The notes beneath the pieces are model-generated. The model saw only the letters and a list, made by a program, of their open reading frames with translations. It was not told the DNA's origin and made no database searches. Both the position numbers and the translations under genes were made by a program. From Betaproteobacteria bacterium Ga0077527 (GTDB taxonomy: Bacteria > Pseudomonadota > Gammaproteobacteria > Burkholderiales > SG8-41), in assembly GCA_001464815.1 (NCBI GenBank), contig LNDW01000007.1:79746-143745 (forward strand): a stretch of DNA of 64,000 bases. The letters are read 5' to 3'. Within the stretch, counting starts at the first letter, position 1; each line of letters opens with the position of its first letter. Shown in pieces: positions 2,488-54,986 of the stretch.

Positions 2488-2494
2488 AATAGTT

Positions 2495-2507
2495 CAATAA
2501 AAACAAT
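2495..2507 (+). repeat. AT-rich element copy 1 (core CAATAAAAACAAT)
   Basis: Exact 13-mer in the rnr/rlmB spacer, 17 nt before the rlmB ATG. Flanks: ataaaatagtt / tacttag. Confidence 0.9.
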
Positions 2508-2523
2508 TACTTAGAAATGTTTT

Positions 2524-3258
2524 ATGAGTGACCTGCAACTGATCCACGGTTTTCACGCCGTCACCAGCCGCCTGCGCAGCCGAGCCGAGGGTGTGCGCGA
2601 GATCTATATCGACGCCGCGCGCCAGGACCGGCGCTGTCGTGACCTGATGGCGCTGGCCGAAGCCAAGGGTGTGCGGGTGATCGCGATCGATGCCAGGCGC
2701 CTCGATGGCATGAGCGGCCAGGAGCGGCATCAGGGCGTGGTGGCGCGGGTCGAACCGGTGAAACTGCCTACCCATATTGACGATGTGCTGGAGGATATTT
2801 CCGAGCCGCTGCTGCTGCTGATCCTCGATGGTGTGACCGATCCGCACAACCTTGGTGCATGCCTGCGCGTGGCCGATGGCATGGGCGCCCATGCGGTGAT
2901 CGCACCCAAGGACCATGCGGTGGGCCTCAATGCCACGGTGGCCAAGGTCGCCAGCGGCGCGGCCGACAGCGTGCCCTACATCATGGTCACCAACCTTGCC
3001 CGCACCATGCGCGAGCTGAAGGACCGCGGCGTGTGGCTGATCGGTGCCGACGAGCGCGCGGACAAGGATCTCTACGCGATCAAGCTCGACGGGCCGATGG
3101 CCTGGGTGCTGGGTGCTGAAGGTGAGGGCATGCGCCGGCTGACCCGGGAAACCTGCGACGAGCTGGCGCGGATTCCGATGCTGGGCAGCGTGGAAAGCCT
3201 CAACGTTTCGGTGTCGGCGGGCATCTGCCTCGCCGAATCACGCCGGCAGCGGCGCTGA
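2524..3258 (+). CDS. rlmB: 23S rRNA (guanosine-2'-O)-methyltransferase RlmB (SpoU/TrmH family)
   Basis: 244 aa with SpoU motifs ([37 protein letters not shown]). Sits immediately downstream of rnr. Confidence 0.85.
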
Positions 3259-3332
3259 ACCCGCGCGCAACCTGGGTGGAGGCTGTCGCCATCCGGCGAC
3301 AAGAAGCGGACAACCATCGGACAGCCCGCGGG

Positions 3333-3350
3333 TTGTGATAATTGTCACAA
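3333..3350. promoter_or_regulatory. perfect CRP-type palindrome TTGTGA-TAATTG-TCACAA upstream of tpsA
   Basis: TGTGA-N6-TCACA core at 3334..3349. TATAAT at 3402..3407 lies downstream (context CCTATAATCC, also seen at 58133..58142). Confidence 0.45.
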
Positions 3351-3505
3351 TCCACGGCAAAGGCGCCGCGGATAAGCTCGAAATGAGCGGCCTGTTGCCC
3401 CTATAATCCTGAAGGTTGAAGTGAACGCTGTCGTGGCCAGGCCACAAGGCTGCGCGGGGTTCCGACCGTTTCGTGATGGCAGGGCCAAGCCGATCAGGGG
3501 GTTCC

Positions 3506-6500
3506 ATGAACAATAACAATGCCGCGCAAAAAAACCGTACTGCGAGCCGCAATCGCGGCCAGCGCATCCGCCCCAAAGCCGCCGCACTGGCCGTTGCCGC
3601 CTGCTTCAGCACTGTGGTCTGGGCGAACCCGACCAACCCGACAGTGGTTCATGGCAACGCGAGCTTCCAGCAGAATGGCAACATCCTCAACGTCACCAAC
3701 AGCCACAACGCGATCATCAACTGGGGTTCGTTCTCGATCGGTGTCAACGAGCTGACCAAATTCATCCAGCCCTCGGCGCTGTCGGCGGTGCTGAACCGCG
3801 TCACCGGCGGCGACCCCTCGGCCATCCTCGGCGCCCTGCAGTCGAACGGCCGCGTATTCCTGCTCAATCCCAACGGCATCGTCTTCGGCGCCGGTTCACA
3901 GATTGATGTCGCCGGCCTTGTTGCCTCCACCCTCAATCTTTCCAACGCCGACTTCCTCGCCGGGCGCATGAACTTCACCGGTGGTGCCGGCGCGGGTTCG
4001 GTGCTGAACCAGGGCGCGATCAACGCCGCCGGCGGCCCGGTCTATCTGGTCGGCAATGCGGTCACCAACCAGGGCATCATCACCAGCCCCGGTGGCGAGA
4101 TCGTGCTCGCTGCGGGCAACAGCGTGGAACTGGTCAATCCCGGCACGCCCAACCTGCGTGTCGAAATCCAGGCCACCAACAACGAGGCGCGCAACCTCGG
4201 CAGCATCGTTTCCGAAGCCGGCCGCATCGGCATCTACGCCGGCCTGATCAAGCAGGGCGGCGTGATCAACGCCGACAGTGCGGTGGTTGAGGGCGGGCGG
4301 ATCATGCTCAAGGCCACGCGGAATGCCACGCTTGAAGCGGGCAGCGTGATCAGCGCCAAGGGTGTGGGCGGTGGCCGCATCGAGGTGCTGGCCGATGACA
4401 GCACGCATGTCGCGGGAGTGCTTGATGCATCGGCACCCAACGGCGGCAACGGCGGTTTCATCGAGACCTCGGGCAAGATCAGGGTGACGGTGGATGACAA
4501 TGCCAGGGTCAGTACCGCGGCGCCCCAGGGCTCGACCGGTGTCTGGCTGATTGATCCGACCGATCTGCTCATCAGCGCAATGGGTGGCGACATGACTGGC
4601 GCTTCGATAGCCACCAACCTGGCGACAACCAGTGTCGTGCTGACATCCGACAACGGCAGCTCCGCGGGCAGCGGCGACATTCTGGTCAATGATGTGATTG
4701 CCTGGAATAGCGCCAACAGCCTGACGTTGACGGCGCGGCGCAATGTATCGGTCAACGGTTCGATCAGCAACGCGGGCAGCGGCGGCATTAATCTTTTTGC
4801 GGGATGGGATGGCTCCAGTTCCCCCAGTGCGCCCACATTGTCCAATCTGGGCATGATTTCGCTGATGAACAGCCTGTCAACCGCCGGCACCGTTCAGCTC
4901 AAGGCCAATGCGGATATCAACCAGAGTGCCTCCGGTGTGATTACCGCCGCCCAGCTCAAGGCGGTCAGCGGAACGGCATCGGTCAACCTGAACAGCGCAG
5001 CCAACAATGTGGGTGTCATCGCGGGTTCCGCGAAAAGCGAGTTCAACTTCAAGAACGCCGGCAGCCTGACGATTGGCAGCGTTGGCGCCGACAACGGCAT
5101 CGTCGTCACCAGCAACGGTAGCGCTCTGGTTGATGTGCATCTCAATTCCGGCGATCTGACGGTTAATCAGTTGGTGCAGGCTACGACCACCGGCCTCAGC
5201 AGCAGTGCCACGGTGGTTCTGCATGCGGACAATGGCAATGTCACCATCAACGCCCCGGTCAGCGCGGTTGCCGGAGGTGATACTTCGATAGATGTTTACG
5301 CCGCCAATAATGTAATCATCAACAGTTCGCTTTCAGCTACTTCCGGCCAATTAGGCGACGCCTTGATACAAGTCGAAGCTGCGGCTGGCAACATTGTGGT
5401 TGCTGGCACCGCGCAGATCGCAGCAGACGCATACGAGGGTGCCGCGGAGATTAATCTGCAGGCCGGTGGTGCCATTCAGCTTGGTGCTGGCACCAATCTG
5501 ATGGCTACAACCGACAACATTTATGGCGGCGATGAGGCTGATATCTATCTCACCGCAGCTGGCAACATCACCCAGAATGCGGGCATCACCGCCGACGGTG
5601 GTGAGCGCGGCGTGGTCTCACTGAACGCCGGCGGTGCCATTTTGCAGACCGACCCCCTGGGCTTCATCCGCGTGGTGGGCCCGAGCAATTCTTACTCAAG
5701 GTTGGATCTGACCGCGGTCAGCGGCATCGGCACCCGCGCCAATCCGGTGCGCATCAATATGGGTGCCGACCCTGACCTGACACCCTATAACACCGGCATG
5801 ACCGGTGACATCGCCCTGTCGTTCTTTAATACGCCTTCAAACCCCGCATACGCCGCGCTGGGCAACGGCCTGTTCATCGACAACGACCTGAACGGCGTCT
5901 ACAACAACAACCCCAACGGCATGTTCTACTTCAAGAGTGATGCCAACATCATCCTGGCCATCCCCTTCACGCCGGACGGGCAGGCCCTGCCTTCAGGCCA
6001 GAGCGTGGTCTTTGACGCGCCCAACGGGCAGATCCACATCGGGCAGCAGTTCGTTTATGACGGTTACTACGGCTATATGCCGACCGGCACCTACGGCAGC
6101 ATCAAGGCCGGTGTCGGTGGTGCCGGCAATGTCGAGCTGATTGCCGGCAACAAACTGACCATCCAGAACGGCTCATTCATCACCGGCCGCGAGCCGCTGA
6201 TCAAGGCCGGAGATATCGATCTACAGGGCGTGATCCGCGCCACTGACAGCAATTTCGGTTTTGTCGACCTCCGGCATGTCACCGGCGGTCCGATCCACCT
6301 CGGCGTCTCAGGCGCTGGTGTGGGCGGCGCGCTGGCGCTGGACAATGCCGAACTCAACCGGATGACACGCTGGGACGGCAGCGGCGATCCATTGACCTCC
6401 GGCTCGGGGGGCGGTTTGCTGATCGGCCAGACCACGGGTGGTCCGCTGATTTTCAAAGGGGCGGTGGGCCCAACCAGCGCCTTCCTCAACGCCCGCGGTT

Positions 6501-7756
6501 CTACGATCACGCAGGACAGTGGCGCCATCATCACTGGCGGGCTCAACGCTTCGGCCCAGACTTCGGTGATGCTGACCGACACCGGCAACCAGATCAATTA
6601 CATCACCGGTGGTCTGGCGAGCAGCGGTACCTTCAGTGTCGTCACCGCGGCGCCGGTCACTGTCGATTCGGTTTCCACGCCGGGTGGCAACATCAACATC
6701 GCCTCCAGCGGTGGCATGACCCTGCAGGGCCAGATCAACGCCGGCGCCGGCACAGTCCAACTGACGGCGAACAGCATTGCCGACAATCACGTCGGTCTCG
6801 ACATCATCGCCAACTCGGCATTGATAACCGCCACTGCGGGCGGCTCAATCGGGTCGATAGCCAATCCGCTGGAAACCTCGGTGCTGAGCCTGAATGTGAG
6901 TTCCTCAGGGGCCGCAGGGCAGGAGATCGGCGTCATCAATGCCGGCAACATGGCACTGTCCGGGTTTGATTTTGGCGGCTCGCTGGCTGCGATCGGTACC
7001 ACGGGGGTGATGAGTCTCAGTTCGCCGCTGACGGTGATGGGCAGCGGTCTGTTCCTTTCCGGCAACGCCGGTTTGAACCTTGTTGGCGGCAATGTCATCA
7101 ATGCCGCGGGTTCATTGACTCTCGCCTCTGGCAGCGGCGCATTGTCTGTCACCGGCGCTTCGGTCAGCGCAGGGGGCAGTCTGGGCCTGAGTGGCGCCAA
7201 TATCCAGATCAGCAATGCCACGCTCAACAGCGCCGGCATCACCACGGTCAACACACCGGGCAGCCTGAGTGTGATCAATGGCGCCCTGTTGTCGAGTTCG
7301 GGCAACATGAACATCGTCACCGGTGGCAACGTGCTGGTCGACCAGGCGCGGATTTTTGGCTCGCCCGATGTCGTGATGTCGGTGGGCGGCCTGATCAACA
7401 TCAATGGCACCCTGGTCCAGCCCGGCAAGATCGAGGCTGCATCGCTCAACACCATCCGGCTCGTGTTCCCAGGGCTCGCCCGCGGCGGATTCTCGATCAA
7501 CGGTGTCGAGGGCGTGGTATACGACGCCTCGACCAATACCGGCTTTTTCGCCGGCGGCGCGCCGGCGGTGCTCGGTGGCGGTCTGAAAGTCAGTTACGGC
7601 GCGGCTCCCGCCACCACCGCCGTGGTGCCGATCGATGCCCTGATCGTTGCCCTGGTGCAGGCCTCCAAGCCGCCCGACCAGCAAAGCAGCACCAACTCCA
7701 ACACTCGCGAAGACGACAAGAAGGACGCCAAAAAAGACGCTCCGGCCTGTCGCTGA
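3506..7756 (+). CDS. two-partner secretion exoprotein (TpsA; filamentous-haemagglutinin-type N-terminal TPS domain, long beta-helical repeat body)
   Basis: ATG at 3506 follows an AGGGGG RBS. Extended signal peptide (..AALAVAACFSTVVWA). TPS domain with NPNGIVFG and the preceding block VVHGNASF..NILNVTN...AIINW.SFSIG. Gly/Ala/Ser/Asn-rich repeats follow. The ORF track start at 3473 is less likely. Confidence 0.85.
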   Translation: MNNNNAAQKNRTASRNRGQRIRPKAAALAVAACFSTVVWANPTNPTVVHGNASFQQNGNILNVTNSHNAIINWGSFSIGVNELTKFIQPSALSAVLNRVTGGDPSAILGALQSNGRVFLLNPNGIVFGAGSQIDVAGLVASTLNLSNADFLAGRMNFTGGAGAGSVLNQGAINAAGGPVYLVGNAVTNQGIITSPGGEIVLAAGNSVELVNPGTPNLRVEIQATNNEARNLGSIVSEAGRIGIYAGLIKQGGVINADSAVVEGGRIMLKATRNATLEAGSVISAKGVGGGRIEVLADDSTHVAGVLDASAPNGGNGGFIETSGKIRVTVDDNARVSTAAPQGSTGVWLIDPTDLLISAMGGDMTGASIATNLATTSVVLTSDNGSSAGSGDILVNDVIAWNSANSLTLTARRNVSVNGSISNAGSGGINLFAGWDGSSSPSAPTLSNLGMISLMNSLSTAGTVQLKANADINQSASGVITAAQLKAVSGTASVNLNSAANNVGVIAGSAKSEFNFKNAGSLTIGSVGADNGIVVTSNGSALVDVHLNSGDLTVNQLVQATTTGLSSSATVVLHADNGNVTINAPVSAVAGGDTSIDVYAANNVIINSSLSATSGQLGDALIQVEAAAGNIVVAGTAQIAADAYEGAAEINLQAGGAIQLGAGTNLMATTDNIYGGDEADIYLTAAGNITQNAGITADGGERGVVSLNAGGAILQTDPLGFIRVVGPSNSYSRLDLTAVSGIGTRANPVRINMGADPDLTPYNTGMTGDIALSFFNTPSNPAYAALGNGLFIDNDLNGVYNNNPNGMFYFKSDANIILAIPFTPDGQALPSGQSVVFDAPNGQIHIGQQFVYDGYYGYMPTGTYGSIKAGVGGAGNVELIAGNKLTIQNGSFITGREPLIKAGDIDLQGVIRATDSNFGFVDLRHVTGGPIHLGVSGAGVGGALALDNAELNRMTRWDGSGDPLTSGSGGGLLIGQTTGGPLIFKGAVGPTSAFLNARGSTITQDSGAIITGGLNASAQTSVMLTDTGNQINYITGGLASSGTFSVVTAAPVTVDSVSTPGGNINIASSGGMTLQGQINAGAGTVQLTANSIADNHVGLDIIANSALITATAGGSIGSIANPLETSVLSLNVSSSGAAGQEIGVINAGNMALSGFDFGGSLAAIGTTGVMSLSSPLTVMGSGLFLSGNAGLNLVGGNVINAAGSLTLASGSGALSVTGASVSAGGSLGLSGANIQISNATLNSAGITTVNTPGSLSVINGALLSSSGNMNIVTGGNVLVDQARIFGSPDVVMSVGGLININGTLVQPGKIEAASLNTIRLVFPGLARGGFSINGVEGVVYDASTNTGFFAGGAPAVLGGGLKVSYGAAPATTAVVPIDALIVALVQASKPPDQQSSTNSNTREDDKKDAKKDAPACR

Positions 7757-7780
7757 TGTCCATCGCCGACCACCCCTCAA

Positions 7781-7807
7781 CCCGGCCACAAAAGCCGGGT
7801 TTTTTCT
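7781..7807 (+). terminator. intrinsic terminator between tpsA and tpsB
   Basis: cccggc-cacaaaa-gccggg stem followed by tttttt. Confidence 0.55.
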
Positions 7808-7933
7808 GGGGCGTGGCAAATAGGGTTGTGAATTCAGGCATTTGCTGGATTTTTTGGGCTCTTTTGCGATAATGCGATGACTTTGCGCAGTGCAGCGCGT
7901 AGCACCGGTAGCAGCATCATCAGGACTTCCGGC

Positions 7934-9541
7934 ATGATAAATTCATCAATAAAAACAAATACTTACATTGCAATTCTGGCGGCATCCCTGACTCTGCTGC
8001 CTACAGGCCTGCGAGCCCAGGATGCACCAGATACGGCAATTCCCGCCCCGCGCTTCGAGATTCGCAGTTTTGAAGTCACCGGCGACTCGATCCTGGGTGC
8101 CGAAACCGTGCAGCGCATCGTTTCCGCCTTCACCGGCACCCAGAAGGATTTTGGTGACGTGCAGCGCGCGTTGGAGGCGCTGGAGGCCGAATACCGCAGG
8201 CGCGGCTTTGGAGTGGTGCAGGTGCGCCTGCCCGAGCAGGACATCACGCGCGGGGTGGTGCGTTTCAGCATCAACGAGCCGCGGGTCGGCAGGGTCAATA
8301 TCGAGGGCAACCGGTTTTTCAGCAACACCAATGTGCGGCGTTCACTGCCTGCGGTGAAAGAGGGCGAGATACCCAATTCGCTTGCCATCGCGCGCGACCT
8401 GCAGATTGTTTCCGAACACCCGGTGAAGCAGACCAATGTGCTGCTGCGCTCGGGCGCGACCGAGAGCCAGGTTGACATCAATGTGCGCATCGCCGACGAC
8501 CGGCCCTGGCGCCTGCTCACCACGCTCGATGACACCGGCACCAGCGACACCGGCTACATGCGCCTCGGCCTGGGTTTCCAGCACACCAACCTGTTCGGCC
8601 TTGACCACTCCTTCTCGGCGCAGTACGTGACCTCGCCGACCAATCATGACCAGGTGGCGATCTACGGCCTGGGCTACCGCATTCCGTATTACCGGCTGCA
8701 CAGCACGCTGGACATGTTCGCCGGTTATTCGGATGTGGATTCCGGCACCGTGCAGGGGCTGTTCAATGTCAGCGGCAAGGGTTCGATCTTCGGCGCTCGC
8801 TGGAACTACCACCTGCCGAAGTGGGACGACATCGAGCATCGCGCCTTCATCGGTCTCGACTATCGCGCCTTCCAGAACAACGTGACCCTCGGCGGCGTCG
8901 GCTTCGTGCCGGACATCACCGTTCATCCGGTGTCGATCGGCTATGCCGGTCTTCAGCGCACCACCTACAGCGAATGGAATTTCAACGCCTCGCTGGCACG
9001 CAACATCCCCGGCGGCAAGGACGGCGACAGCGGCGATTTCAACCGCACCCGTACCGGCGCCAGCGCCACCTACACCATATTCCGTTTCGGCACCTCGTAC
9101 GTGCAGATCTTTGGCAAGGAATGGCAGGGCAGGGCCGCGTTGTCCGGGCAGTACACCCAGGACATGCTGGTGCCCGGCGAGCAGTACGGCATCGGTGGAT
9201 TCGACACCGTGCGCGGCTACCAGCCCCGTGAGGCCTCCAACGACAAGGGGCATGCGGTGCAGCTTGAAATCTACACACCGAACCTCGCTGACAAGGCCGG
9301 GATGTCCGACAAATGGCGGGCGCGGCTGCTCGGCTTCTACGACTTCGGTGATGTCAAACGCAACAATCCGCAGCCTGGTGAGCAGGCCGGCAAATTCCTC
9401 GCCAGCACCGGCATCGGTATGCGCCTCGCCTATGGCAAAACCGTCAGCCTGCGCCTTGATCTGGCACAGCCGCTGAAGGCCTTTGGCACCCGTCAGGTTG
9501 ATGACTGGCGGCTCAACGGTGCGCTGGCACTGGTCTACTGA
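7934..9541 (+). CDS. TpsB outer-membrane transporter (ShlB/FhaC/HecB family, POTRA + beta-barrel)
   Basis: Signal peptide MINSSIKTNTYIAILAASLTLLPTGLRA, a POTRA-like N-terminus (F.I..F.V.G...L) and a beta-barrel ending in an aromatic residue (..ALALVY). The start at 7934 is preferred over the ORF-track start at 7877. Confidence 0.85.
   Translation: MINSSIKTNTYIAILAASLTLLPTGLRAQDAPDTAIPAPRFEIRSFEVTGDSILGAETVQRIVSAFTGTQKDFGDVQRALEALEAEYRRRGFGVVQVRLPEQDITRGVVRFSINEPRVGRVNIEGNRFFSNTNVRRSLPAVKEGEIPNSLAIARDLQIVSEHPVKQTNVLLRSGATESQVDINVRIADDRPWRLLTTLDDTGTSDTGYMRLGLGFQHTNLFGLDHSFSAQYVTSPTNHDQVAIYGLGYRIPYYRLHSTLDMFAGYSDVDSGTVQGLFNVSGKGSIFGARWNYHLPKWDDIEHRAFIGLDYRAFQNNVTLGGVGFVPDITVHPVSIGYAGLQRTTYSEWNFNASLARNIPGGKDGDSGDFNRTRTGASATYTIFRFGTSYVQIFGKEWQGRAALSGQYTQDMLVPGEQYGIGGFDTVRGYQPREASNDKGHAVQLEIYTPNLADKAGMSDKWRARLLGFYDFGDVKRNNPQPGEQAGKFLASTGIGMRLAYGKTVSLRLDLAQPLKAFGTRQVDDWRLNGALALVY
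7947..7959 (+). repeat. AT-rich element copy 2 (CAATAAAAACAAA, 1 mismatch)
   Basis: Lies inside the first codons of tpsB (SIKTNTY). The flank tacttac matches copy 1 (tacttag). Confidence 0.8.
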
Positions 9542-9576
9542 TCTCCGGCGCGTCTAAATCCTTGATTTCAAAGCCC

Positions 9577-9604
9577 TTGATCGACAAGGGCATTCCGGTA
9601 TAAT
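9577..9604 (+). promoter_or_regulatory. putative sigma70 promoter of the rpsF operon
   Basis: TTGATC, 16 nt spacer, TATAAT (9599..9604). It sits about 110 nt upstream of the rpsF ATG. The -35 lies within the palindrome cccttgatcgacaaggg. Confidence 0.4.
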
Positions 9605-9716
9605 CCGGCCTCCCGTTCGGGCGCCAGTCCGCCGGGATGCAATACCACAATCGAAGGTTTCCTTGCCGCACCGCGCTCGCATCGCAGGCGGCCCAACAGC
9701 CCACAAGGAGAATTGA

Positions 9717-10124: not shown

Positions 10125-10127
10125 CCA

Positions 10128-11284: not shown

Positions 11285-11361
11285 TTTGTTACAGTCGGGA
11301 TGATGCCGGCTTGGCGCCGGACATTTTTTATTTTAAAATCAATAACTTACAGGCAATCCCG

Positions 11362-20654: not shown

Positions 20655-20673
20655 GGCTGATTAACTGTAAACT

Positions 20674-20686
20674 ATTGTTTTTATTG
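20674..20686 (-). repeat. AT-rich element copy 3 (exact core, reverse orientation)
   Basis: ATTGTTTTTATTG on the plus strand. It overlaps the tesA stop codon (..KVQ*). The flank aaaagtt matches copy 1. Confidence 0.9.
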
Positions 20687-21325
20687 AACTTTTAGTTCTG
20701 CCCCCAGCACCTTCCACACCGTATCCAGGATCAGCGGCTGTGCAGCCGCAACGGGGTGCAACTGATCCGGCTGGAACAACTCGCGTTTTTCGGCGAACCC
20801 CTCGAGCAGGAAAGGCACCAGCGGCACCCGTTTGGCGCGGGCAATCTCGCTGAAACTGCGGCGGAACTTTTCGGTGTATTGCGGGCCGTAGTTGGGCGGT
20901 ATCTGCATGCCCACCAGCAACACCCGTGAATTCGCGCGGCGCGCGGCATCGATGATGCGCTCAAGATTGCTGCGCATCGCCTCGACGCTGGCGCCACGCA
21001 GGCCGTCGTTGGCGCCGAGTGCGACGATGGTCAGCGCGGGGCGGTGTTCACGCAAGGCCTGTTCGATGCGGTTCAGTCCGCCGAGAGTGGTCTCGCCGCT
21101 GATGCTGGCGTTGGCCACCTTATAATCTGACTTGAGTTCACGCAGCCGTTGTTGCAGCAGCGCCGGCCAGTCGGCGCCGCGGGCCAGACCGTAACCGGCG
21201 GACAGGCTGTCGCCATAGACCAGGATCGTGGCCGCCGATGCCGGCAGCGCACCCAGCAGGCCCAGCAGCAGGGCAGGAAACAGTTTCAGCAGCTTACAAA
21301 CAAAAACACGAAAAAAAATGAACAA
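20681..21325 (-). CDS. tesA: SGNH/GDSL arylesterase - acyl-CoA thioesterase I (TesA-like)
   Basis: The block ILVYGDSLSAGYG, GANDGLRG and a C-terminal D..HP. Signal-peptide-like N-terminus if the TTG at 21325 is the start. The 312-aa ORF-track version runs antisense into ybbA and is rejected. Confidence 0.7.
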   Translation of the reverse strand: MFIFFRVFVCKLLKLFPALLLGLLGALPASAATILVYGDSLSAGYGLARGADWPALLQQRLRELKSDYKVANASISGETTLGGLNRIEQALREHRPALTIVALGANDGLRGASVEAMRSNLERIIDAARRANSRVLLVGMQIPPNYGPQYTEKFRRSFSEIARAKRVPLVPFLLEGFAEKRELFQPDQLHPVAAAQPLILDTVWKVLGAELKVQ

Positions 21326-24547: not shown

Positions 24548-25819
24548 GTGAGCGAAGCGCAGACCATCACTATCTTATTGTTTTTATTGGTTATTTTAGC
24601 CATTGTCCTGGTGCTGCTGATGCTCCGGAGCCGCGGCCCGGCGCCGGCCTTGCAGGCACTGCAGCAGTCGCTGGAACAATCGCTCGAAACCAAGCACCGC
24701 GCGATGCTTGGTGATCTTCACGACGGGCTGACCAAACAGGGCGACCGTCTCGGCACCCAGGTCACCGAGGCCAACGAACGCCAGCGCACATCCACCGCCG
24801 ACGAACTGAAGCAGACGCGTGAAGTGCTGCATGCGCTGCAGTTGCGCCTGTCGCAGGAGCTGGGCGGCCAGCGCGAAGCACTGCTTGAGCGCCTCGCGGC
24901 CACCACCGAAAGCCTCAATACCAAGATCGATGCGCGGCTCGGCGAAATCGCCGGCAAGGTCAACGAGCGCCTCGATGAAGGTTTCAAGAAAACCAACGAA
25001 ACCTTCATGAGCGTGATGACACGGCTGGCCACCATCGACGAAGCGCAGAAAAAAATCGAAAGCCTGACCGGCAGTGTGGTCAGCCTGCAGGAGCTGCTCG
25101 GCGACAAACGTGCGCGCGGTGCTTTCGGCGAGGTGCAGCTTGAAGGCCTGGTGCGCAATGTGCTGCCGCCGAATGCCTATGACATGCAGTTCACGCTGTC
25201 CAACGGCACCCGCGCCGACTGCGTGCTGCGCCTGCCGGCACCGACCGGCATGGTCGCGGTGGATTCAAAATTCCCGCTGGAGAACTACCACCGCATGTTC
25301 GAGACCGGCGTCAACGATGTCGACCGCGCGCTGGCGCAGAAGCAGTTCCGCGCCGACATCCGCAAACACGTGGATGACATCTCGCGCAAATACATCATCG
25401 CCAACGAAACCTCGGATGGCGCGGTGATGTTCGTGCCGGCGGAGGCGGTGTTCGCCGAAATCCACGCCCACCACGCTGAAACTGTCGAATACGCCAGCGC
25501 CAAGCGGGTGTGGATTGTTTCGCCGACCACGCTGATGGCGGTACTCAACACCGCGCGCGCTGTGCTCAAGGATGTCGAGACGCGCAAGCAGGTGCATGTG
25601 ATCAAGGAATCGCTGGCGCGGCTGGCGGTGGAGTTCGGCCGTTTCGACGACCGCATGAAAGACCTCGCCAAACACATCCGCCAGGCCTATGAGGATGTGG
25701 AGAGGGTGCAGGTCACCAGCGGCAAGATTTCGCAGCGTTTCGCGCAGATCGAGGGCGTCGAACTCGACGAAGAGGCCGAGCGCGCGAAAGTTTTGCAACT
25801 GCGCAACGACAACAGCTGA
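24548..25819 (+). CDS. rmuC: DNA recombination protein RmuC
   Basis: N-terminal TM helix, a long coiled coil, then the RmuC nuclease-like C-terminus (..RADCVLRLP....VAVDSKFPLE.Y.., YI....T.D.A.MF.P.E..). Confidence 0.85.
   Translation: MSEAQTITILLFLLVILAIVLVLLMLRSRGPAPALQALQQSLEQSLETKHRAMLGDLHDGLTKQGDRLGTQVTEANERQRTSTADELKQTREVLHALQLRLSQELGGQREALLERLAATTESLNTKIDARLGEIAGKVNERLDEGFKKTNETFMSVMTRLATIDEAQKKIESLTGSVVSLQELLGDKRARGAFGEVQLEGLVRNVLPPNAYDMQFTLSNGTRADCVLRLPAPTGMVAVDSKFPLENYHRMFETGVNDVDRALAQKQFRADIRKHVDDISRKYIIANETSDGAVMFVPAEAVFAEIHAHHAETVEYASAKRVWIVSPTTLMAVLNTARAVLKDVETRKQVHVIKESLARLAVEFGRFDDRMKDLAKHIRQAYEDVERVQVTSGKISQRFAQIEGVELDEEAERAKVLQLRNDNS
24577..24589 (-). repeat. AT-rich element copy 4 (exact core, reverse orientation)
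   Basis: Lies inside rmuC codons for ILLFLLVIL, written with the rare-looking codons tta ttg ttt tta ttg gtt att tta. The 24-nt stretch ttattgtttttattgRttatttta is shared with copy 8. Confidence 0.9.
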
Positions 25820-26717: not shown

Positions 26718-26731
26718 CAATAAAAACCAAT
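26718..26731 (+). repeat. AT-rich element copy 5 (CAATAAAAACCAAT, one extra C)
   Basis: 12 nt upstream of the glk ATG. Confidence 0.7.
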
Positions 26732-26743: not shown

Positions 26744-27748
26744 ATGACCCAGCACCTGATCCTCGCCGCCGACATCGGCGGCACCAACGCCACCTTCGCC
26801 CTTGCCGAAGCCGCCGCCGGCAAGCTGAACATCCTCATCCAGCAGGAATACCTGAGCCGCGAATTCCAGAATTTCGCGCCCATCCTGCAACGCTTCCTCG
26901 AACTGCCTGAAGTCGCGCCCCGGCGTGCCGCCATCGCCGCATCCTGCATCGCCGTCGCCGGTCCGGTGAAAGAGGGCGCCTCGGTGCTGACCAACCTCGG
27001 CTGGCAGGTCGAAGCCGCGGCGGTGGCCGAACAGTTCGGACTGAAGCAGGTGAGCCTGATCAATGACTTCTACGCGGCCGGCATTGGCGTTGGTGAACTG
27101 CAGGATGTGGATTTCTTTGAACTGCAGGCGGCAGAAGCCGACCTTGAAGCCGCGTCGGTGATCGTCGGCGCCGGCACCGGTCTGGGTGTCGGCATCATCA
27201 CCCGCGATGGCGGGCGCCTGCGGGTGCTGTCTTCCGAAGCCGGGCACGGCGACTTCGCGCCCACCGACGAACTGCAGGACCGGCTGCTGGTCTACCTGCG
27301 CCGCAACTATGGCCGCGTGTCCTGGGAACGCGTGATCTCGGGGCCGGGCCTGATGCGCATCTTTGCCTTCCTGCAGGAAAGCGGATTCGGCGCACCGTCG
27401 AAACAACTGCTCGCCGCGACCAAACGTCCCGGCGTTGATCCCGCGGCAGTCATCACCGAATACGGCATGGGCAAACTCGACCCGCTGGCCGTGCGCGCGC
27501 TGGATCTGTTCATCTCCGCCTACGGTGCCTTCGCTGGCAACATGGCCTTGAATTCATTGGCGCGCGGCGGCGTCTACGTCGCCGGCGGCATCGCTCCACG
27601 CATCGTGCAGCGCCTGAAAGACGGCAACTTCATGCGCGGCTTCACCGGCAAGGGCGCGTTCACGCCGCTGCTGTCGGGGATACCGGTGCGGGTGGTGATG
27701 GAGCCGAAGGTGGGTTTGCGCGGGGCGTTGCGGGTGGCTGCTGGATAA
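26744..27748 (+). CDS. glk: glucokinase
   Basis: MTQHLILAADIGGTNATFAL.. (ROK-less Glk N-terminal ATP motif). 334 aa. The ORF-track start at 26501 overlaps mtfA and is rejected. Confidence 0.85.
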   Translation: MTQHLILAADIGGTNATFALAEAAAGKLNILIQQEYLSREFQNFAPILQRFLELPEVAPRRAAIAASCIAVAGPVKEGASVLTNLGWQVEAAAVAEQFGLKQVSLINDFYAAGIGVGELQDVDFFELQAAEADLEAASVIVGAGTGLGVGIITRDGGRLRVLSSEAGHGDFAPTDELQDRLLVYLRRNYGRVSWERVISGPGLMRIFAFLQESGFGAPSKQLLAATKRPGVDPAAVITEYGMGKLDPLAVRALDLFISAYGAFAGNMALNSLARGGVYVAGGIAPRIVQRLKDGNFMRGFTGKGAFTPLLSGIPVRVVMEPKVGLRGALRVAAG

Positions 27749-27845
27749 ATTATGTTTAAAAACAATGGCTTATATAATTTATAACGATCTGTCTTGTCCC
27801 GACTAAACTGCTCATTTCAAGCCATCAATTTTCATGGGAGGCCCC

Positions 27846-31356: not shown

Positions 31357-31950
31357 TTAATCGCGCCCGCTCTGCGCCAGTTCTTCCCGCGTATTGATAT
31401 TGCGGAATGCCGCTTCATCCGCAAACTGTACTTCCACGACCTTCAGCTGCGAATACCACATGTCGATCTTACGGCCACCGCTTTCCAGAAAAGCGGTCAG
31501 GCTCGGCAGCACAGATGTCTTGCACAGGCTGAACACCGGATGCGGCTGGTCGCCGGTCTTGGCGACGGCAAGTTCGGCGTTGTTGGCGTCGAGCGCGGCC
31601 TTGAGTTGCGCCACCAGGTCCAGTGGCAGGAAGGGTGAGTCGCAGGGCGCGGTGACCACCAGCGGATGCGCGGCTTCGCTCAGGCCGCGATGCAGGCCGG
31701 CCAGCGGGCCGGCGTAGCCGCCGATGGCGTCAGGGATGACTCTGTATCCAAGTGCTTGATATTGTTCAATATTTTGATTGGCGTTGATCAGCAGTTCGTC
31801 GACCTGCGGGGCGAAGCGTTCGATGACGTGCTGCGCCATCGGTTTGCCGCGCAGCAGCTGCAGGCCCTTGTCGACGCCGCCCATGCGCCGGCCCTGGCCG
31901 CCGGCGAGTAATACGCCGGTGATTCCGGCTGTCGTCCCCGTCATGGTCAT
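31357..31950 (-). CDS. mobA: molybdenum cofactor guanylyltransferase
   Basis: MTMTGTTAGITGVLLAGGQGRRMGGVDKGL.. with the canonical LAGG..RRMGG.DK motif. The start overlaps the fdhD stop (ATGA). The longer ORF-track version is rejected. Confidence 0.85.
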   Translation of the reverse strand: MTMTGTTAGITGVLLAGGQGRRMGGVDKGLQLLRGKPMAQHVIERFAPQVDELLINANQNIEQYQALGYRVIPDAIGGYAGPLAGLHRGLSEAAHPLVVTAPCDSPFLPLDLVAQLKAALDANNAELAVAKTGDQPHPVFSLCKTSVLPSLTAFLESGGRKIDMWYSQLKVVEVQFADEAAFRNINTREELAQSGRD

Positions 31951-43262: not shown

Positions 43263-43507
43263 GCATGCACAAATTGCTGGTGGCGGGCGCGGCGCTGATC
43301 GTGGGTATGACAGTTGGTGGGGTATCGGCCAAGCTGCCGCCGCCATCAGAAGAAGCCAAGGCCAAGGCGGCAGAGGCCAAAGCCAAGTCTGACGAGGCGG
43401 CGAAAAAGGATGGCGAGAGTCTGGCCAAGGCTCAGGATCGTGTGGCCGACCGTTACAAGAAACAGCAGAAATCCAAACCGGCAACGGTGGCTTCCAGCAA
43501 AAAGTGA
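43259..43507 (+). CDS. small secreted Ala/Lys/Glu-rich protein, last gene of the fdh operon
   Basis: 82 aa: MSMHKLLVAGAALIVGMTVGGVSA signal, then a charged low-complexity region. The ATG overlaps the fdhC stop. A strong terminator follows. Confidence 0.4.
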   Translation: MSMHKLLVAGAALIVGMTVGGVSAKLPPPSEEAKAKAAEAKAKSDEAAKKDGESLAKAQDRVADRYKKQQKSKPATVASSKK

Positions 43508-43532
43508 TTTGCTGCAGCTGCCCCGGTTGGAT

Positions 43533-43561
43533 AAAAAACCCGGTTCTTACCGGGTTTTTTT
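43533..43561. terminator. bidirectional intrinsic terminator
   Basis: aaaaaacccgg-ttcttac-ccgggttttttt. Confidence 0.75.
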
Positions 43562-43585
43562 ATGAGTGGGATTTTATAAAAATAT

Positions 43586-43598
43586 CAATAAAAACAAT
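43586..43598 (+). repeat. AT-rich element copy 7 (exact core)
   Basis: tataaaaatatCAATAAAAACAATaagttatt, in the convergent spacer between the fdh operon and the dctP-like gene. Confidence 0.9.
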
Positions 43599-43620
43599 AA
43601 GTTATTATTTATCCCGGTGA

Positions 43621-48379: not shown

Positions 48380-48449
48380 CGCGGCATCCTCAAATTAGTC
48401 GATGATTTTATCAGGGGAGATCAGGGGTATAAGACTTGACGGATGAGAC

Positions 48450-49523: not shown

Positions 49524-49598
49524 GGTCGGGGAGGGTTCGGGGGAATTTCGGATAATTTCGGCAAACTATTGCATATTAAGGCAGTGCTGATTATGCGG

Positions 49599-49631
49599 GA
49601 ATATCCAGACAAATAATTCATGTCGGATATT
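49599..49631. promoter_or_regulatory. imperfect inverted repeat GAATATCC-N18-GGATATT overlapping the tupB translation start region
   Basis: Read directly from the sequence. Also a direct repeat AATTTCGG at 49544..49551 and 49554..49561, 10-bp phased. Candidate operator(s) for the divergent regulator. Confidence 0.3.
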
Positions 49632-49633
49632 TC

Positions 49634-50338: not shown

Positions 50339-50340
50339 TC

Positions 50341-51045: not shown

Positions 51046-51860
51046 ACCGATTCCGCAGAGTGCTGCTGTCACTGGTGTTTGTGTTGTCCGTCACCGGCGT
51101 GCAGGCGCAGCAGACTTTCATCACGGTGGCTTCGACCACATCGACCGAGCAGTCGGGGCTGTTCAAGCACCTGCTTCCGGTGTTCGAAAAAAAGACCGGC
51201 ATCCAGGTGCGGGTGGTGGCGCTGGGCACCGGCCAGGCGCTGGACATGGCGCGCCGCGGCGACGCCGATGTGGTGTTTGTGCACGACCCGGCAGCGGAGG
51301 AGAAATTCGTCGCCGAAGGTTTTGGCCTGCGCCGCCAGGAGGTGATGTACAACGACTTTGTGCTGGTCGGTCCGAAATCCGATCCGGCCAGAATCCTCGG
51401 CAGCCGCGACATTGTTGATGCTTATAAAAAGATCGCAGCGGCCGGTGCCCCCTTCGCCTCGCGCGGTGACAAGAGCGGCACCCATGCCGCCGAACTGCGC
51501 CTGTGGAAAACAGCCGGAGTCGATCCGCAGACCGGCAAGGGCGGCTGGTATCGCGAGACCGGTTCCGGCATGGGGCCGACGCTGAACACCGCCTCGGCGA
51601 TGAATGCCTATGCCTTCACCGACCGCGGCACCTGGCTGTCGTTCAAGAACCGCGGCGACCTGGTGATCGTCGTCGAGGGCGACCAGCGCCTGTTCAACCA
51701 GTACGGCGTGATGCTGGTCAATCCGTCCAAGCACCCGCACGTCAAGCGCGAGCAGGGCCAGGCTTTCGTCGATTGGCTGGTGTCGCCTGAAGGGCAGGCC
51801 ACGATTGCCTCGTACAAGATCGGTCCGGATCAATTGTTCTTTCCCAACACCAAACGCTGA
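51042..51860 (+). CDS. tupA: tungstate-binding periplasmic protein (TupA-like)
   Basis: Signal peptide, then ..ITVASTTSTEQSGL...L.P.FE..TGI.V.VVA.GTGQAL...R.GDADV..VH, the TTTS/SGL anion-binding signature I associate with TupA. Confidence 0.75.
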   Translation: MNRFRRVLLSLVFVLSVTGVQAQQTFITVASTTSTEQSGLFKHLLPVFEKKTGIQVRVVALGTGQALDMARRGDADVVFVHDPAAEEKFVAEGFGLRRQEVMYNDFVLVGPKSDPARILGSRDIVDAYKKIAAAGAPFASRGDKSGTHAAELRLWKTAGVDPQTGKGGWYRETGSGMGPTLNTASAMNAYAFTDRGTWLSFKNRGDLVIVVEGDQRLFNQYGVMLVNPSKHPHVKREQGQAFVDWLVSPEGQATIASYKIGPDQLFFPNTKR

Positions 51861-51880
51861 GCCCGGCGCCTGGGGTATGC

Positions 51881-52942
51881 TTGCGCGCTTTCACAGCGCG
51901 AAATCCCCCGGTGTCATTCACAGAAACCCGTCGCGGCCGTTTACCCCTGCTTGTCGGATGCGGTGTCATCGTGCTGACGCTGCTGGCCGCATGGGCCTTT
52001 GCCCTGGGCCGTTATCCGCTGGCGGTGATGGATGTGCTGCGCGTGTTGTGGTCATGGGCGGGCGGTGCGCCGCACGGGCTCGATCCTGCGGTTGAAACCG
52101 TGGTGCTGCAGATCCGCGGGCCGCGGGTGCTGTCCGCGCTGCTGGTGGGTGCGGCATTGGCCGCGGCCGGTGCGGCCTACCAGAACCTGTTCCGCAATCC
52201 GCTGGTGTCGCCGGATATTCTGGGTGTATCCGCCGGTGCGGCGGTGGGCGCGGTGCTGGGCATTTTCCTGTCGCTGGGGGTGGTGATGATCCAGGGCATG
52301 GCCTTCGCCGGCGGACTGCTGGCGGTGGCCCTGGTGTATTTCACGGCGCGAGCGGTGCGCGGCCATGATCCGCTGCTGGTGCTGGTGCTCGCGGGCGTGG
52401 TGCTGGGTTCGCTGCTCGGTGCCTGCGTCGCACTGATGAAATACCTCGCCGATCCGTACAACCAGCTGCCTGCGATCACTTTCTGGCTGCTTGGCAGTCT
52501 GGCCTCGGTCAATCCGGCCGACCTGCGCCTGGCCGCACCGCTGATGATCATCGGCCTGATTCCGCTGTGGCTGCTGCGCTGGCGCATCAATGTGCTGGCC
52601 CTGGATGATGAGGAGGCGCGGGCGCTGGGTGTGGCCACCGGCCGCATCCGCCTTGTGGTGATCATCTGCGCGACGCTGATGACTTCCGCGGCGGTGGCGA
52701 TCGCCGGCGTGGTCGGCTGGATCGGGCTGGTGATCCCGCATTTCGCGCGGCTGCTGAGCGGTCCTGATTTCTCGCGCCTGCTGCCATTGTCGGTGCTGCT
52801 CGGCGCCGGTTTCCTGGTGGCGGTGGATACGCTGGCGCGTGTGCTCGCCAATGTCGAGATTCCGCTGGGCGTGCTCACCGCCTTTGTCGGCACGCCGCTG
52901 TTCCTGTGGCAGCTTGCCACGGCAAAAAGAGGATTTCAATGA
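51881..52942 (+). CDS. FecCD/BtuC-type (type II) ABC importer permease; MolB-like by context
   Basis: 353 aa, about 10 TM helices, FecCD blocks (..GP.....LL.GA.LA.AGA..Q...RNPL..P..LG...GA..). Putative TTG start. Confidence 0.7.
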   Translation: MRAFTARNPPVSFTETRRGRLPLLVGCGVIVLTLLAAWAFALGRYPLAVMDVLRVLWSWAGGAPHGLDPAVETVVLQIRGPRVLSALLVGAALAAAGAAYQNLFRNPLVSPDILGVSAGAAVGAVLGIFLSLGVVMIQGMAFAGGLLAVALVYFTARAVRGHDPLLVLVLAGVVLGSLLGACVALMKYLADPYNQLPAITFWLLGSLASVNPADLRLAAPLMIIGLIPLWLLRWRINVLALDDEEARALGVATGRIRLVVIICATLMTSAAVAIAGVVGWIGLVIPHFARLLSGPDFSRLLPLSVLLGAGFLVAVDTLARVLANVEIPLGVLTAFVGTPLFLWQLATAKRGFQ

Positions 52943-52952
52943 GATTCGGGCA

Positions 52953-53741
52953 ATGATGCTGGCAGCCGAAGCCCTGGATTTTGGTTATCACGGCCGCAGT
53001 GTTGGTCATGGCGTTTCGCTGCAACTGGCTGCGGGCGAGGTGCTGGCCTTGCTCGGGCCCAACGGCAGTGGCAAGACCACGCTGTTCAAGACCCTGCTCG
53101 GCCTGCTGCCGAAGCAGGGGGGGCGGCTGCTGCTCGATGGCACTGATCTCGAAGCACTTCCGCGCCAAGAGGTTGCGCAGCGTGTCAGTTATGTGCCGCA
53201 GGCGCACGGCACTTTTTTTCCGTACAGCGTGCGCGAAGTGGTGCTGATGGGGCGCACCGCACACCTTGGCCTGTTCGCTATGCCATCGCGGCGTGATCGC
53301 GAACTGGCCGATGAGGCCATCGCGCGTATGGGTCTCACGCAACTTGCCGATGCCGCCTTTACGCAGATCTCCGGCGGCGAACGCCAACTGGTGCTGATCG
53401 CGCGCGCGCTGGCGCAGGCGGCGACGCTGATGGTGATGGATGAGCCGACGGCCAATCTCGACTTCGGCAACCAGCTGCGCGTGCTCGAACGCATCCGCGC
53501 GCTTGCCGACGCGGGCATCGGCGTGCTGCTGTCCACCCACGATCCCGATCAGGTGTTTCTCTGTGCCGACCGCGTGGCCTTGCTGCGCGGCGGAACGCTG
53601 CTCGCCTGCGGCATGCCGCGCGAGGTGATGTCGGATGCCAGCCTGCGCGAGCTGTACGGCGTGGCCGTGGCAGTGACCACGGTGATGGCGGGGCAGGGCG
53701 AACGCCAGGTCTGCCTGCCGCTGTTCGGTGACGGGCGCTGA
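52953..53741 (+). CDS. ABC ATPase partner of the type II importer (FecE/BtuD/MolC-like)
   Basis: GPNGSGKTTL, ISGGERQLVLIARAL, MVMDEPTANLD. The ATG at 52953 is preferred to the ORF-track start at 52839. Confidence 0.7.
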   Translation: MMLAAEALDFGYHGRSVGHGVSLQLAAGEVLALLGPNGSGKTTLFKTLLGLLPKQGGRLLLDGTDLEALPRQEVAQRVSYVPQAHGTFFPYSVREVVLMGRTAHLGLFAMPSRRDRELADEAIARMGLTQLADAAFTQISGGERQLVLIARALAQAATLMVMDEPTANLDFGNQLRVLERIRALADAGIGVLLSTHDPDQVFLCADRVALLRGGTLLACGMPREVMSDASLRELYGVAVAVTTVMAGQGERQVCLPLFGDGR

Positions 53742-53742
53742 C

Positions 53743-54114
53743 ATGGCGCGTTACCCGGGACTGATGCTGCGCATCCTCGCCGAGGATCACCCGGCAATCG
53801 GACCGGGCAAGGCGCAACTGGTGGCGCTGATTGATTCCACGGGTTCCATTTCGGCGGCTGCACGCGAAATGGGCATGTCCTATCGTCGTGCATGGCAACT
53901 GGTGGAGGCGCTGAACGCCAGTTTCATCGAGCCGGTGGTGATGACCGCGGTCGGCGGCAAGCGCGGTGGTGGTGCGGTGGTCACCGCGTTTGGCCGTGAA
54001 CTGGTGCAGCAGTTCCGCGCGATCGAGGACAAGGCCTCGAAAGCCATCGCCACCGACATCGAACGGCTGCAGCGACGGATGCGCAAGCCGCCACGGGCGC
54101 CGCAGCGCCAATGA
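53743..54114 (+). CDS. short ModE-like regulator (N-terminal winged-HTH domain only, no Mop/di-Mop domain)
   Basis: 123 aa: ..GPGKA.L...I..TGSISAAAREMGMSYRRAW.LV..LN......V.....GG..GGGA..T..G. Confidence 0.7.
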   Translation: MARYPGLMLRILAEDHPAIGPGKAQLVALIDSTGSISAAAREMGMSYRRAWQLVEALNASFIEPVVMTAVGGKRGGGAVVTAFGRELVQQFRAIEDKASKAIATDIERLQRRMRKPPRAPQRQ

Positions 54115-54150
54115 TTTCAAGGTTCCTGAATTGCCGCGGTTGCCACACTT

Positions 54151-54174
54151 CGTTATATTCAGAAAAACATAACG
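54151..54174. promoter_or_regulatory. ModE-type operator upstream of modA
   Basis: CGTTATAT-tcagaaaa-ACATAACG. Closely resembles the E. coli modA operator as I recall it (CGTTATATTGTCGCCTACATAACG). Lies 30-53 nt upstream of the modA ATG. Confidence 0.55.
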
Positions 54175-54203
54175 ACGAGACTGGCGGACGCTGTATTTAT
54201 TCC

Positions 54204-54986
54204 ATGAATTTTAATAAATTATTGTTTTTATTGATTATTTTATGGTCATCCAGTCTTGCAGCCGCGCAGTCTGAAGTGCCGGCTGTGGCCGCGGCATCGG
54301 ACCTGAAATTTGCGGTGGAGGAAATTGCCGTGCGTTTTCGCAGCGAGACCCGGCGTGAAGTGCGGCTTTCCTTCGGTTCATCGGGCAATTATTTCCAGCA
54401 GATCGTGCAGGGCGCGCCATTCCAGTTGTTCATGTCCGCGGATGAAGACTTCGTGCACAAACTGCATGCCGGTGGCAGGACCGAGGACCGCGGTGTGCTG
54501 TACGCCATCGGGCGCATCGTCCTCTTCGCCCCGCATGCTTCGCTGCTGCAGGTCGATGCGACCATGGGCGGGCTGAAATCGGCGCTGGCTGCCGGGCAGA
54601 TCCGCCGCTTTGCGATCGCCAATCCCGAGCACGCGCCATATGGACGGGCCGCGGAGCAGGCCCTGCGCAAGCTGGGACTTTGGGAGGGTTTGCGCGACCG
54701 GCTGGTTCTTGGCGAGAACGTATCGCAGGCAGCGCAGTTTGCCGCGGGGGGCTCGACCCAGGGCGGGATTTTTGCCTACTCGCTGGCGCTGGCGCCGCAG
54801 GTTTCCAGGCTTGGCCGCTACGTGCTGCTGCCGGAAGAATGGCACCAGCCGCTGCGCCAGCGCATGGTGCTGACGAAGGGTGCCGGGGAAACCGCGCGGG
54901 CTTTCTACGCCTATCTTCAGCAACCCGCGGCGCGCGAGGTGTTCGTGCGTTATGGTTTCACGCTACCGCAAACCGCGCTGCAATAA
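54204..54986 (+). CDS. modA: molybdate ABC transporter substrate-binding protein
   Basis: Signal peptide MNFNKLLFLLIILWSSSLAAA, then ModA blocks (..FGSSG.....I..GAP...F.SAD.., ..A.P...PYG..A...L). The ATG at 54204 is preferred. Confidence 0.85.
   Translation: MNFNKLLFLLIILWSSSLAAAQSEVPAVAAASDLKFAVEEIAVRFRSETRREVRLSFGSSGNYFQQIVQGAPFQLFMSADEDFVHKLHAGGRTEDRGVLYAIGRIVLFAPHASLLQVDATMGGLKSALAAGQIRRFAIANPEHAPYGRAAEQALRKLGLWEGLRDRLVLGENVSQAAQFAAGGSTQGGIFAYSLALAPQVSRLGRYVLLPEEWHQPLRQRMVLTKGAGETARAFYAYLQQPAAREVFVRYGFTLPQTALQ
54221..54233 (-). repeat. AT-rich element copy 8 (exact core, reverse orientation)
   Basis: Lies inside the modA signal-peptide codons KLLFLLIIL (aaa tta ttg ttt tta ttg att att tta). 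Confidence 0.9.

Follow-up and report, generated by a model that had tools for sequence, protein, structure and literature searches.

Integration host factor (IHF), a heterodimeric protein of the DNABII family, is near-universal in the Proteobacteria. Its canonical site spans ~34 bp: WATCAA stands near the middle, TTR follows 4 bp to its 3' side, two steps, mostly AA, are set 9 bp apart, and the 5' half contains a tract of 4–6 A (PMC1874591). A second account agrees on these elements (bioRxiv 10.1101/382655). The two prolines of IHF intercalate at the two steps (PMC1874591; bioRxiv 10.1101/382655). We describe here a repeated AT-rich element of ~35 nt in a 64-kb stretch of contig LNDW01000007.1 (the window), part of an activated-carbon metagenome assembly from an uncultured betaproteobacterium. 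The element is built around the 13-mer CAATAAAAACAAT and lines up in register with the canonical IHF site, contrary to the original prediction for this DNA, which had stated that it was not an IHF box. On balance we favour the view that its copies form a stereotyped family of architectural sites of IHF type, predicted to be of high affinity, which one clade has amplified and which lie at regular distances.

Both the IHF site as a kind and repeated IHF sites, the latter on REP and Correia elements, are already known. RIP/BIME-1 of E. coli and the Correia IHF sites of Neisseria are repeated, lie at gene ends or between convergent genes and often stand beside terminators. The element is like them in being a repeated site, of predicted IHF type, at gene ends, between convergent genes and often beside terminators, but theirs ride on inserting palindromic REP or miniature inverted-repeat transposable element (MITE) units, whereas the element has no palindrome and was born by substitution. 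With canonical IHF sites such as lambda attP H' it shares the length (~34–35 bp), the lack of a palindrome, the richness in AT, an A-tract in its 5' half, a 9-bp distance between two AA steps and, in the 3' half, a counterpart of WATCAA-N4-TTR, all at equal spacings. It differs from them in being one stereotyped sequence present in what we extrapolate, from local densities and not from counts, to be a few hundred copies per genome; its non-contact positions are conserved, it mostly has AAACAA, it also occurs in coding sequence, and its binding by IHF is a prediction. We know of no description of a free-standing, substitution-evolved and regularly spaced single optimal IHF site that is amplified in a clade and reaches into coding regions.

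The core CAATAAAAACAAT has five exact copies in the window, at 2495 (+), 20674 (-), 24577 (-), 43586 (+) and 54221 (-), against an expectation of 0 (none in 100 dinucleotide-preserving shuffles). Allowing up to two mismatches raises the number to seven, against 0.3 expected, by adding 7947 (+), which reads CAATAAAAACAAA, and 26718 (+), which reads CAATAAAAACCAA and has one inserted C. The recurrence of the 13-mer at seven positions, as originally reported, is thus borne out, as are the alignment of the flanks around the core and the 24-nt identity of the copies in rmuC (24577) and modA (54221). When AT-rich islands (20 or more A or T in 24 positions) were listed independently of the motif, this window of ~63% G+C proved to have ten, nine of which belong to the element family. 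The family unit, AT-rich and ~35 nt long, is yATAAAAATAT-CAATAAAAACAAT-WASTTAYRAT, a consensus that can also be written 5'-ATAAAAATAT CAATAAAAACAAT TAGTTAYGAT-3'. In 78 copies from GC-rich loci, positions -10 to +26, counted from the start of the core, are AT-rich and the sequence on either side is GC-normal, the 3' flank of the consensus being (T/A)A(G/C)TTAY(G/A)AT. There are two common variants among the copies not chosen by the search pattern, ...CAAATACTTA and CAATAAAATCAAT (the T variant); the A variant of the 35-bp unit is ATAAAAATATCAATAAAAACAATTAGTTACGATAT. On the forward strand the core reads AAT-AAA-AAC-AAT, that is, four A-A-N triplets (2496–2507, for example). No inverted repeat or palindrome was found in the copies, and the folded copies gave no meaningful hairpin and no common fold, with energies of -0.8 to -4.5 kcal/mol that were no better than those of shuffles in four of five copies (the 20674 copy had z -2.5). 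Rfam and tRNA scans of the window returned only a tRNA-Leu and no Rfam match to the element.

Judged by sequence, this unit has counterparts of all four canonical IHF elements, in register. The putative A-tract is the AAAAA at -8..-4, kept in 70–78 of the 78 copies at -7..-5. The first kink step would be the AA of the first CAAT (+1/+2) and the second the AA of the second CAAT (+10/+11), which follows exactly 9 bp later and lies within the WATCAA equivalent at +6..+11. This equivalent is AAACAA in the main variant, one mismatch from the consensus, and AATCAA, a perfect match, in the T variant and in the copy at 11339. The least conserved internal positions of the unit, +12..+15, coincide with the N4 of the IHF consensus, and the place of TTR, +16..+18, is taken by TTA in the copies at 2495, 7947, 11339, 20674, 27756, 43586, 54221 and 60868. 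These spacings equal those of lambda attP H', which we take to be AAAAAA-GCATTGCT-TATCAA-TTTG-TTG, both overlapping strings of which are found in lambda att papers. In two more distant relatives (L330 and L331, see below) the 5' half of the unit drifts and AAWCAAT-NNN-TTAY is kept. The pattern WAWCAANNNNTTR occurs 11 times in the window against 0.4–0.8 in order-3 and order-5 Markov simulations; per 10 kb the clade has 1.6 such matches and GC-matched relatives have 0.33. Perfect consensus matches are also kept in the 9-bp deletion copy at 11339 and, twice, in the one AT-rich island outside the family (see below), which likewise speaks for IHF. On the IHF reading, the 13-mer first noticed would be the pair of kink steps.

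The positions of the copies are conserved between species. Loci L329, L330 and L331, in which DnaB is 93, 87 and 83% identical to that of the window, have copies at the same spots: L329 in the rnr|rlmB spacer, at the start of tpsB and in the rplI|dnaB and thiL|lipase spacers; L330 in the hisZ|purA, rnr|rlmB, rplI|dnaB and thiL|lipase spacers and at the rmuC N-terminus; and L331 at the start of tpsB, in the rplI|dnaB and thiL|lipase spacers and at the rmuC N-terminus. The thiL|lipase copy is kept ~3.9 kb upstream of rmuC in six further loci (L252, L253, L255, L257, L260 and L265). In L178, where the flanking genes are 77% identical, the equivalent of the 43586 copy is identical over ~29 nt but for one base, and the remainder of its spacer has diverged. 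The copies are old.

Within the window the copy at 2485..2519 (+) has an exact core and fills the 36-bp rnr|rlmB spacer; the TAA in its CATAAAA is the stop codon of rnr, and the ATG of rlmB lies 16 nt past the core. The copy at 7937..7971 (+), of the sub-variant CAATAAAAACAAATACTTA, has its 13-mer (7947) in codons 5–9 of tpsB, whose product begins MINSSIKTNTY. The rplI|dnaB spacer holds, at 11319..11352 (+), a copy that has lost one 9-bp unit (TCAAT^AACTTAC), leaving a T/A tract plus AATCAATAACTTA with a perfect WATCAANNNNTTR; at this spot the relatives in L329, L330 and L331 are of full length. Exact cores are also found at 20662..20696 (-), in the convergent thiL|GDSL-lipase spacer, where the TAA within CAATAAA is the stop codon of the lipase, at 24565..24599 (-), within codons 9–17 of rmuC (ILLFLLVIL, in the N-terminal transmembrane helix), and at 54209..54243 (-), within the signal peptide MNFNKLLFLLIILW of modA. 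The fifth, at 43576..43610 (+), lies in a convergent spacer and directly follows an intrinsic-terminator hairpin, AAAAAACCCGGTTCTTACCGGGTTTTTTT; the contexts originally given for the other four exact or near-exact copies in or beside rlmB, tpsB, rmuC and modA, and for 20674, were right, but the 43586 copy adjoins the stop codon of a DctP-family gene, 22 nt away, and not a start codon. A diverged copy, gttTAAAAACAATGGCTTATATAAT, with three mismatches, occupies 27743..27777 (+) and begins at the stop codon of glk; its orthologues in L256, L257 and L261 match the family better. Another, TCAATTAAATCAGTTAGTTA at 60868..60902 (+), had been overlooked in the original list. It fills the 45-bp divergent spacer that separates a GFO/IDH/MocA oxidoreductase gene from a 95-aa open reading frame (ORF), and its core and 3' flank read CAATTAAATCAGT-TAGTTA. 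The same contig carries a further two copies a short way upstream of the window, one in the hfq|hflX and one in the hisZ|purA spacer.

Three other sequences are at or beyond the edge of the family. The one at 26718..26731 (+), upstream of glk (CAATAAAAAC-C-AAT), does match the core with one insertion, as had been claimed, but is a weak or decayed relative: the extra C gives a 10-bp spacing instead of 9, A-tract and TTA are both missing, and the 20-nt family scan did not pick it up. Among the sequences proposed as degenerate copies, those at 11339 (one 9-bp unit lost) and 27756 (three mismatches) hold up, and that at 21297 does not, having at least four mismatches and no TTA in register. At 21240–21320 (-) the start of the GDSL lipase is in question: its longest ORF encodes 312 aa, but in relatives the protein is annotated with 210 aa. 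With the shorter start, the lipase would have a T-rich signal peptide, LFIFFRVFVCKLLKLF, and it was this that had been taken for a degenerate copy. The tenth AT-rich island, TTGATATTGTTCAATATTTTGATT at 31749..31779 (-), is the only one in the window outside the family and carries two perfect WATCAANNNNTTR matches. It sits among short ORFs without a Pfam match, in the part of the window with the lowest GC (0.585–0.60).

Some neighbouring genes deserve mention. A two-partner secretion (TPS) pair, a 1427-aa TPS-domain exoprotein and a ShlB/POTRA transporter, occupies 3473–9541 between rlmB and rpsF; L330 has a TctC gene in its place, so that this is a variable island within a conserved ribosomal/dnaB neighbourhood. 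At 43263–43560 there is a small Lys/Ala-rich secreted ORF with a signal peptide, followed by the terminator hairpin AAAAAACCCGGTTCTTACCGGGTTTTTTT; L178 likewise has this ORF and a hairpin.

Copies inside genes show how the element arises. Of 83 copies, seven lie deep inside long conserved genes, and the in-gene and N-terminal copies use three reading frames only, KN(I)NKNNxL, SIKT(I/N)TY and, on the other strand, LLFLL(I/V)IL. The copy in the methylcrotonyl-CoA carboxylase beta gene, SVKNINKNNMLQN, lies opposite CVANLNWRKQGQL in an alignment to P. aeruginosa 3u9r_B that is gap-free over 535 residues, and the copy in a peptide-binding protein aligns, again without gaps, opposite TEVERVKNSPSMELIE. 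Since the in-gene copies are gap-free to their homologues, they arose by substitution and not by insertion. All RmuC relatives of at least 76% identity encode the first transmembrane helix with ...TTATTG(T/A)TTTTATTG..., and those of at most 75%, which lack the motif, use CTG, CTC and GTC codons for a helix of similar length. The codons had been called foreign to the genome, and TTA indeed makes up 0.6% of Leu codons in the genes of the window. The constraint acts on DNA, not protein: the codons are rare, the element occurs in both orientations and in all types of spacer, and it is kept while its flanks diverge, as had been argued from the first.

The gap-free alignments, together with the similar length of the RmuC helix with and without the element and the absence of a hairpin, lead us to reject as extremely improbable the suggestion of a footprint of a small mobile element (MITE-, REP- or RPE-like) inserting at gene boundaries and in frame, for although the copies are nearly identical and their TAA...TTA ends could pass as target-site features, they have no inverted repeats and their positions are stable across species.

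Spacers of every kind are used. The 24 classified spacer copies comprise 14 in tandem spacers (10 forward and 4 reverse), 5 in convergent and 5 in divergent ones. The TAA of TAAAA is the stop codon of the upstream gene for 13 copies, and 5 give TTA to a convergent gene; many lie 8–60 nt from start codons and several abut terminator hairpins. At L230:1067 and L230:7402, 6.3 kb apart, the 3' ends of two paralogous genes have the element at the same place; this element was duplicated along with its gene. Successive copies lie at fairly regular distances. Among 33 intervals, 3% are shorter than 2 kb, against 31% expected, and the coefficient of variation is 0.56 against 0.89, a value as low being reached in 0.04% of simulations; in the window and its upstream flank all ten intervals fall between 3.2 and 12.7 kb. 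The sites are thus more evenly spaced than by chance, with many of the intervals orthologous.

The family is largely the property of one clade. A scan of one genome per GTDB species with the pattern TAAAA-N3-5-CAATAAAAACAAT-NNN-TTA gave at least 120 matches; among the matches listed, most are in metagenome-assembled genomes (MAGs) of GC 0.55–0.67, several to a MAG, with the labels Burkholderiales, Betaproteobacteria or (mislabelled) Bordetella. DnaB relatives at 80–100% identity also number at least 120, and all those listed come from MAGs or metagenomes labelled Betaproteobacteria or Burkholderiales, with no cultured relative among them. The density is ~1 copy per 5–7 kb in the genome of the window (~1 per 6 kb locally, counting the window copies and the two just upstream), 1 per 7–16 kb in relatives, and ~1 per 5–16 kb over the clade of uncultured Burkholderiales MAGs. 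When 80 RmuC-anchored metagenomic loci were scanned with the 20-nt family pattern (the reversed-sequence control gave 0 matches), it was found in nearly all loci with RmuC at least 76% identical and was absent from almost all of those at 75% or less. The 122 AT-rich islands in 520 kb of GC-rich loci and the window comprise 72 with the exact core, 31 with 1–3 mismatches and 19 others. Per 10 kb there are 2.5 islands in the clade and the window and 0.33, ~8-fold fewer, in GC-matched distant relatives, where no iterated motif was found. A second lineage, L296/L297, with RmuC 72–73% identical, has a related variant, AATAAAAACATATACTTA (L296:5783, L296:10930 and L297).

Occurrences are conserved further afield. 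Two Bradyrhizobium MAGs and another alphaproteobacterium share the 29-mer TTAGTAAAAnAnnnCAATAAAAACAATnnnTTAG in a divergent promoter region, and 21–29 nt of the element sequence are also conserved in three Polynucleobacter genomes and in Alteromonadaceae. By a rough reckoning that assumes the composition of the collection, the non-proteobacterial matches of the genome scan are at about the chance level that AT-rich genomes give, and the proteobacterial ones at GC 0.4–0.6 are far above chance. The 29-mer conserved outside the clade points to a binder shared across the Proteobacteria. In the alphaproteobacterial loci (L192:7100–7500, L215:3050–3450 and L177:3650–4050) it lies ~0.5–2.8 kb from a tRNA-Leu(CAG) and beside a conserved palindrome, GTTGAGTAAnnTACTCAA; the arrangement resembles regulatory DNA of an integrated element. 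In Alteromonadaceae the motif precedes a sigma54-like element by 22 nt, TGGCACG-N4-TGGC in locus L172 and TGGCAC-N5-TTGT in locus L186, and a position upstream of such an element is the classic place of IHF at an enhancer-dependent promoter. A scan of viral contigs with a 17-base pattern was swamped by noise from AT-rich phages and yielded nothing usable, and a literature search for the 13-mer, its variants and flanks returned no bacterial context, only eukaryotic or irrelevant matches.

If IHF is the binder, the A5 tract would be seated in one clamp of the protein, the AA steps of the two CAAT repeats would be the two kinks at which the prolines intercalate, and AA(A/T)CAA-NNNN-TTA would be the WATCAA-N4-TTR recognition element, so that IHF, on binding, would bend each site into a U-turn. 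The sites arise in place by point substitution and would be maintained by selection acting on the DNA. Most are at gene boundaries; when no spacer is available, they lie in coding segments that tolerate them, such as signal peptides, transmembrane helices and K/N-rich loops. Lying ~3–13 kb apart, they would together form a fairly regular set of architectural bends in the chromosome, which perhaps mark the boundaries of domains or transcription units. Among the three explanations first offered, a site for a nucleoid protein is the one that the evidence favours.

Several points weigh against IHF as the binder. That the clade has IHF is assumed because the protein is near-universal in the Proteobacteria, and its binding to the element is predicted; tblastn with E. 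coli IhfA and IhfB queries found no IHF gene in the loci examined, and a Pfam search of the small ORFs of the window found no DNABII protein. The commonest variant has AAACAA, one mismatch from WATCAA, and positions that IHF does not read specifically (the TAAAA between the CAATs and the first C) are more strongly conserved than binding by IHF alone would explain. IHF is universal but the amplification is found in one clade, so that something clade-specific is left unaccounted for. The match was found post hoc, with a rough chance of ~0.002 for a random AT-rich 35-mer of like composition, and the intervals used in the spacing test include many orthologous sites and are hence non-independent. 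A literature search on repetitive IHF sites gave nothing informative.

The same observations can be read in another way, as an uptake signal similar to the DNA uptake sequence (DUS) of Neisseriaceae or the uptake signal sequence (USS) of Pasteurellaceae, for which a competence receptor would prefer DNA with the motif and biased uptake followed by recombination (molecular drive) would spread the copies. DUS and USS, like the element, are short, over-represented, strand-symmetric and clade-specific, come in 'dialects', are conserved in position and have coding copies made by substitution in tolerant frames. The extreme over-representation seen here would be expected of such a signal, as would the use of both orientations with no replication polarity, the restriction to a clade with dialects of its own (A or T at core position 9, ...CAAATACTTA and the L296 form), the positions shared by different species, the regular spacing and the in-gene copies, which lie in tolerant segments and few frames (KNINKNNxL, SIKTITY and LLFLLIIL) as in USS. 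We nevertheless give this explanation low credence. At ~1 per 5–16 kb the element is about ten-fold less dense than DUS and USS with their ~1/kb, and its core is AT-rich in a GC-rich genome. The same 29-mer is found outside the clade, in regulatory regions of Alpha- and Gammaproteobacteria and in Polynucleobacter, which a clade-private receptor does not explain and which weakens the original suggestion of an uptake-type signature; the pattern of conservation, moreover, tracks the IHF consensus. Recent literature lists uptake sequences in Neisseriaceae and Pasteurellaceae only, and our search for new ones in Betaproteobacteria returned nothing beyond these two families. It is conceivable, if doubtful, that the element represents a third, independent uptake (self-recognition) family, in which the uptake machinery or an extracellular DNABII protein reads the AT-rich, bendable, IHF-like design. 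The spread into coding regions might then reflect molecular drive and not selection for chromosome folding, a proposal to which we attach the same low probability.

A binder other than IHF, specific to the clade, is about as doubtful as an uptake signal. This would be a nucleoid-associated or segregation protein that reads the directly repeated CAAT-N5-CAAT core. Such a protein would account for amplification limited to one clade, for the conservation of the whole 13-mer beyond the needs of IHF contact and for the regular spacing, but no candidate is known, the occurrences conserved outside the clade do not fit it, and the match to all four IHF elements would be a coincidence.

A signal for transcription or translation, be it a promoter or UP-like sequence, an AT-rich initiation region lacking a Shine–Dalgarno sequence or, as RNA, an (AAN)4 Hfq motif of the ARN type, we consider unlikely. 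The proximity of many copies to start codons (8–60 nt) would suit it, TTAYRAT resembles a -10 box, the copies upstream of dnaB end in TTATAAT or TTATAAG, and the four A-A-N triplets AAT-AAA-AAC-AAT are as RNA a motif for the distal face of Hfq. There is, however, no -35 at a sensible spacing, 5 of the 24 classified copies are in convergent spacers, where they are equally conserved, 7 of 83 are deep in genes, the orientation relative to neighbouring genes is mixed, and the element has neither an Rfam match nor a secondary structure. A sigma70-type promoter in particular was rejected, having no -35 and copies that are convergent, in-gene and reverse-oriented.

Other classes of site were also compared. 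KOPS, Chi, matS, parS and the sites of Noc and SlmA are short, palindromic or strand-polar and mostly number fewer than 100 per genome. The element shares with them selection at the DNA level and a scattered distribution that sometimes extends into genes; it differs in being 35 nt long, non-palindromic, non-polar and far more numerous. The copies run + + + - - + + - + along the window, over which the cumulative GC skew rises almost steadily, and a polar motif of the KOPS, Chi or Ter type was rejected because of this mixed orientation under constant skew. That E. coli Ter sites also contain GTAACTAA was judged a coincidence, and the consensus sequences of ArgR, H-NS, Fis, Lrp and the OmpR family fit only in part.

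In practice, the element confuses the calling of start codons and supplies neighbouring genes with stop codons, and it offers a compact marker for binning and recognising the clade in metagenomes. It shapes signal peptides, transmembrane helices and enzyme loops through LLFLLIIL, SIKTITY and KNINKNNxL. Were it an uptake signal after all, it would be the first such family outside Neisseriaceae and Pasteurellaceae. If the IHF reading is true, this lineage writes one optimal IHF site hundreds of times into its chromosome at fairly regular intervals, sometimes at the cost of preferred codons and amino acids in housekeeping proteins, which raises the question of why the clade needs such sites when GC-matched relatives do not. 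Sequence alone would then suffice to read an architectural layer of the chromosome in organisms that have not been cultured.

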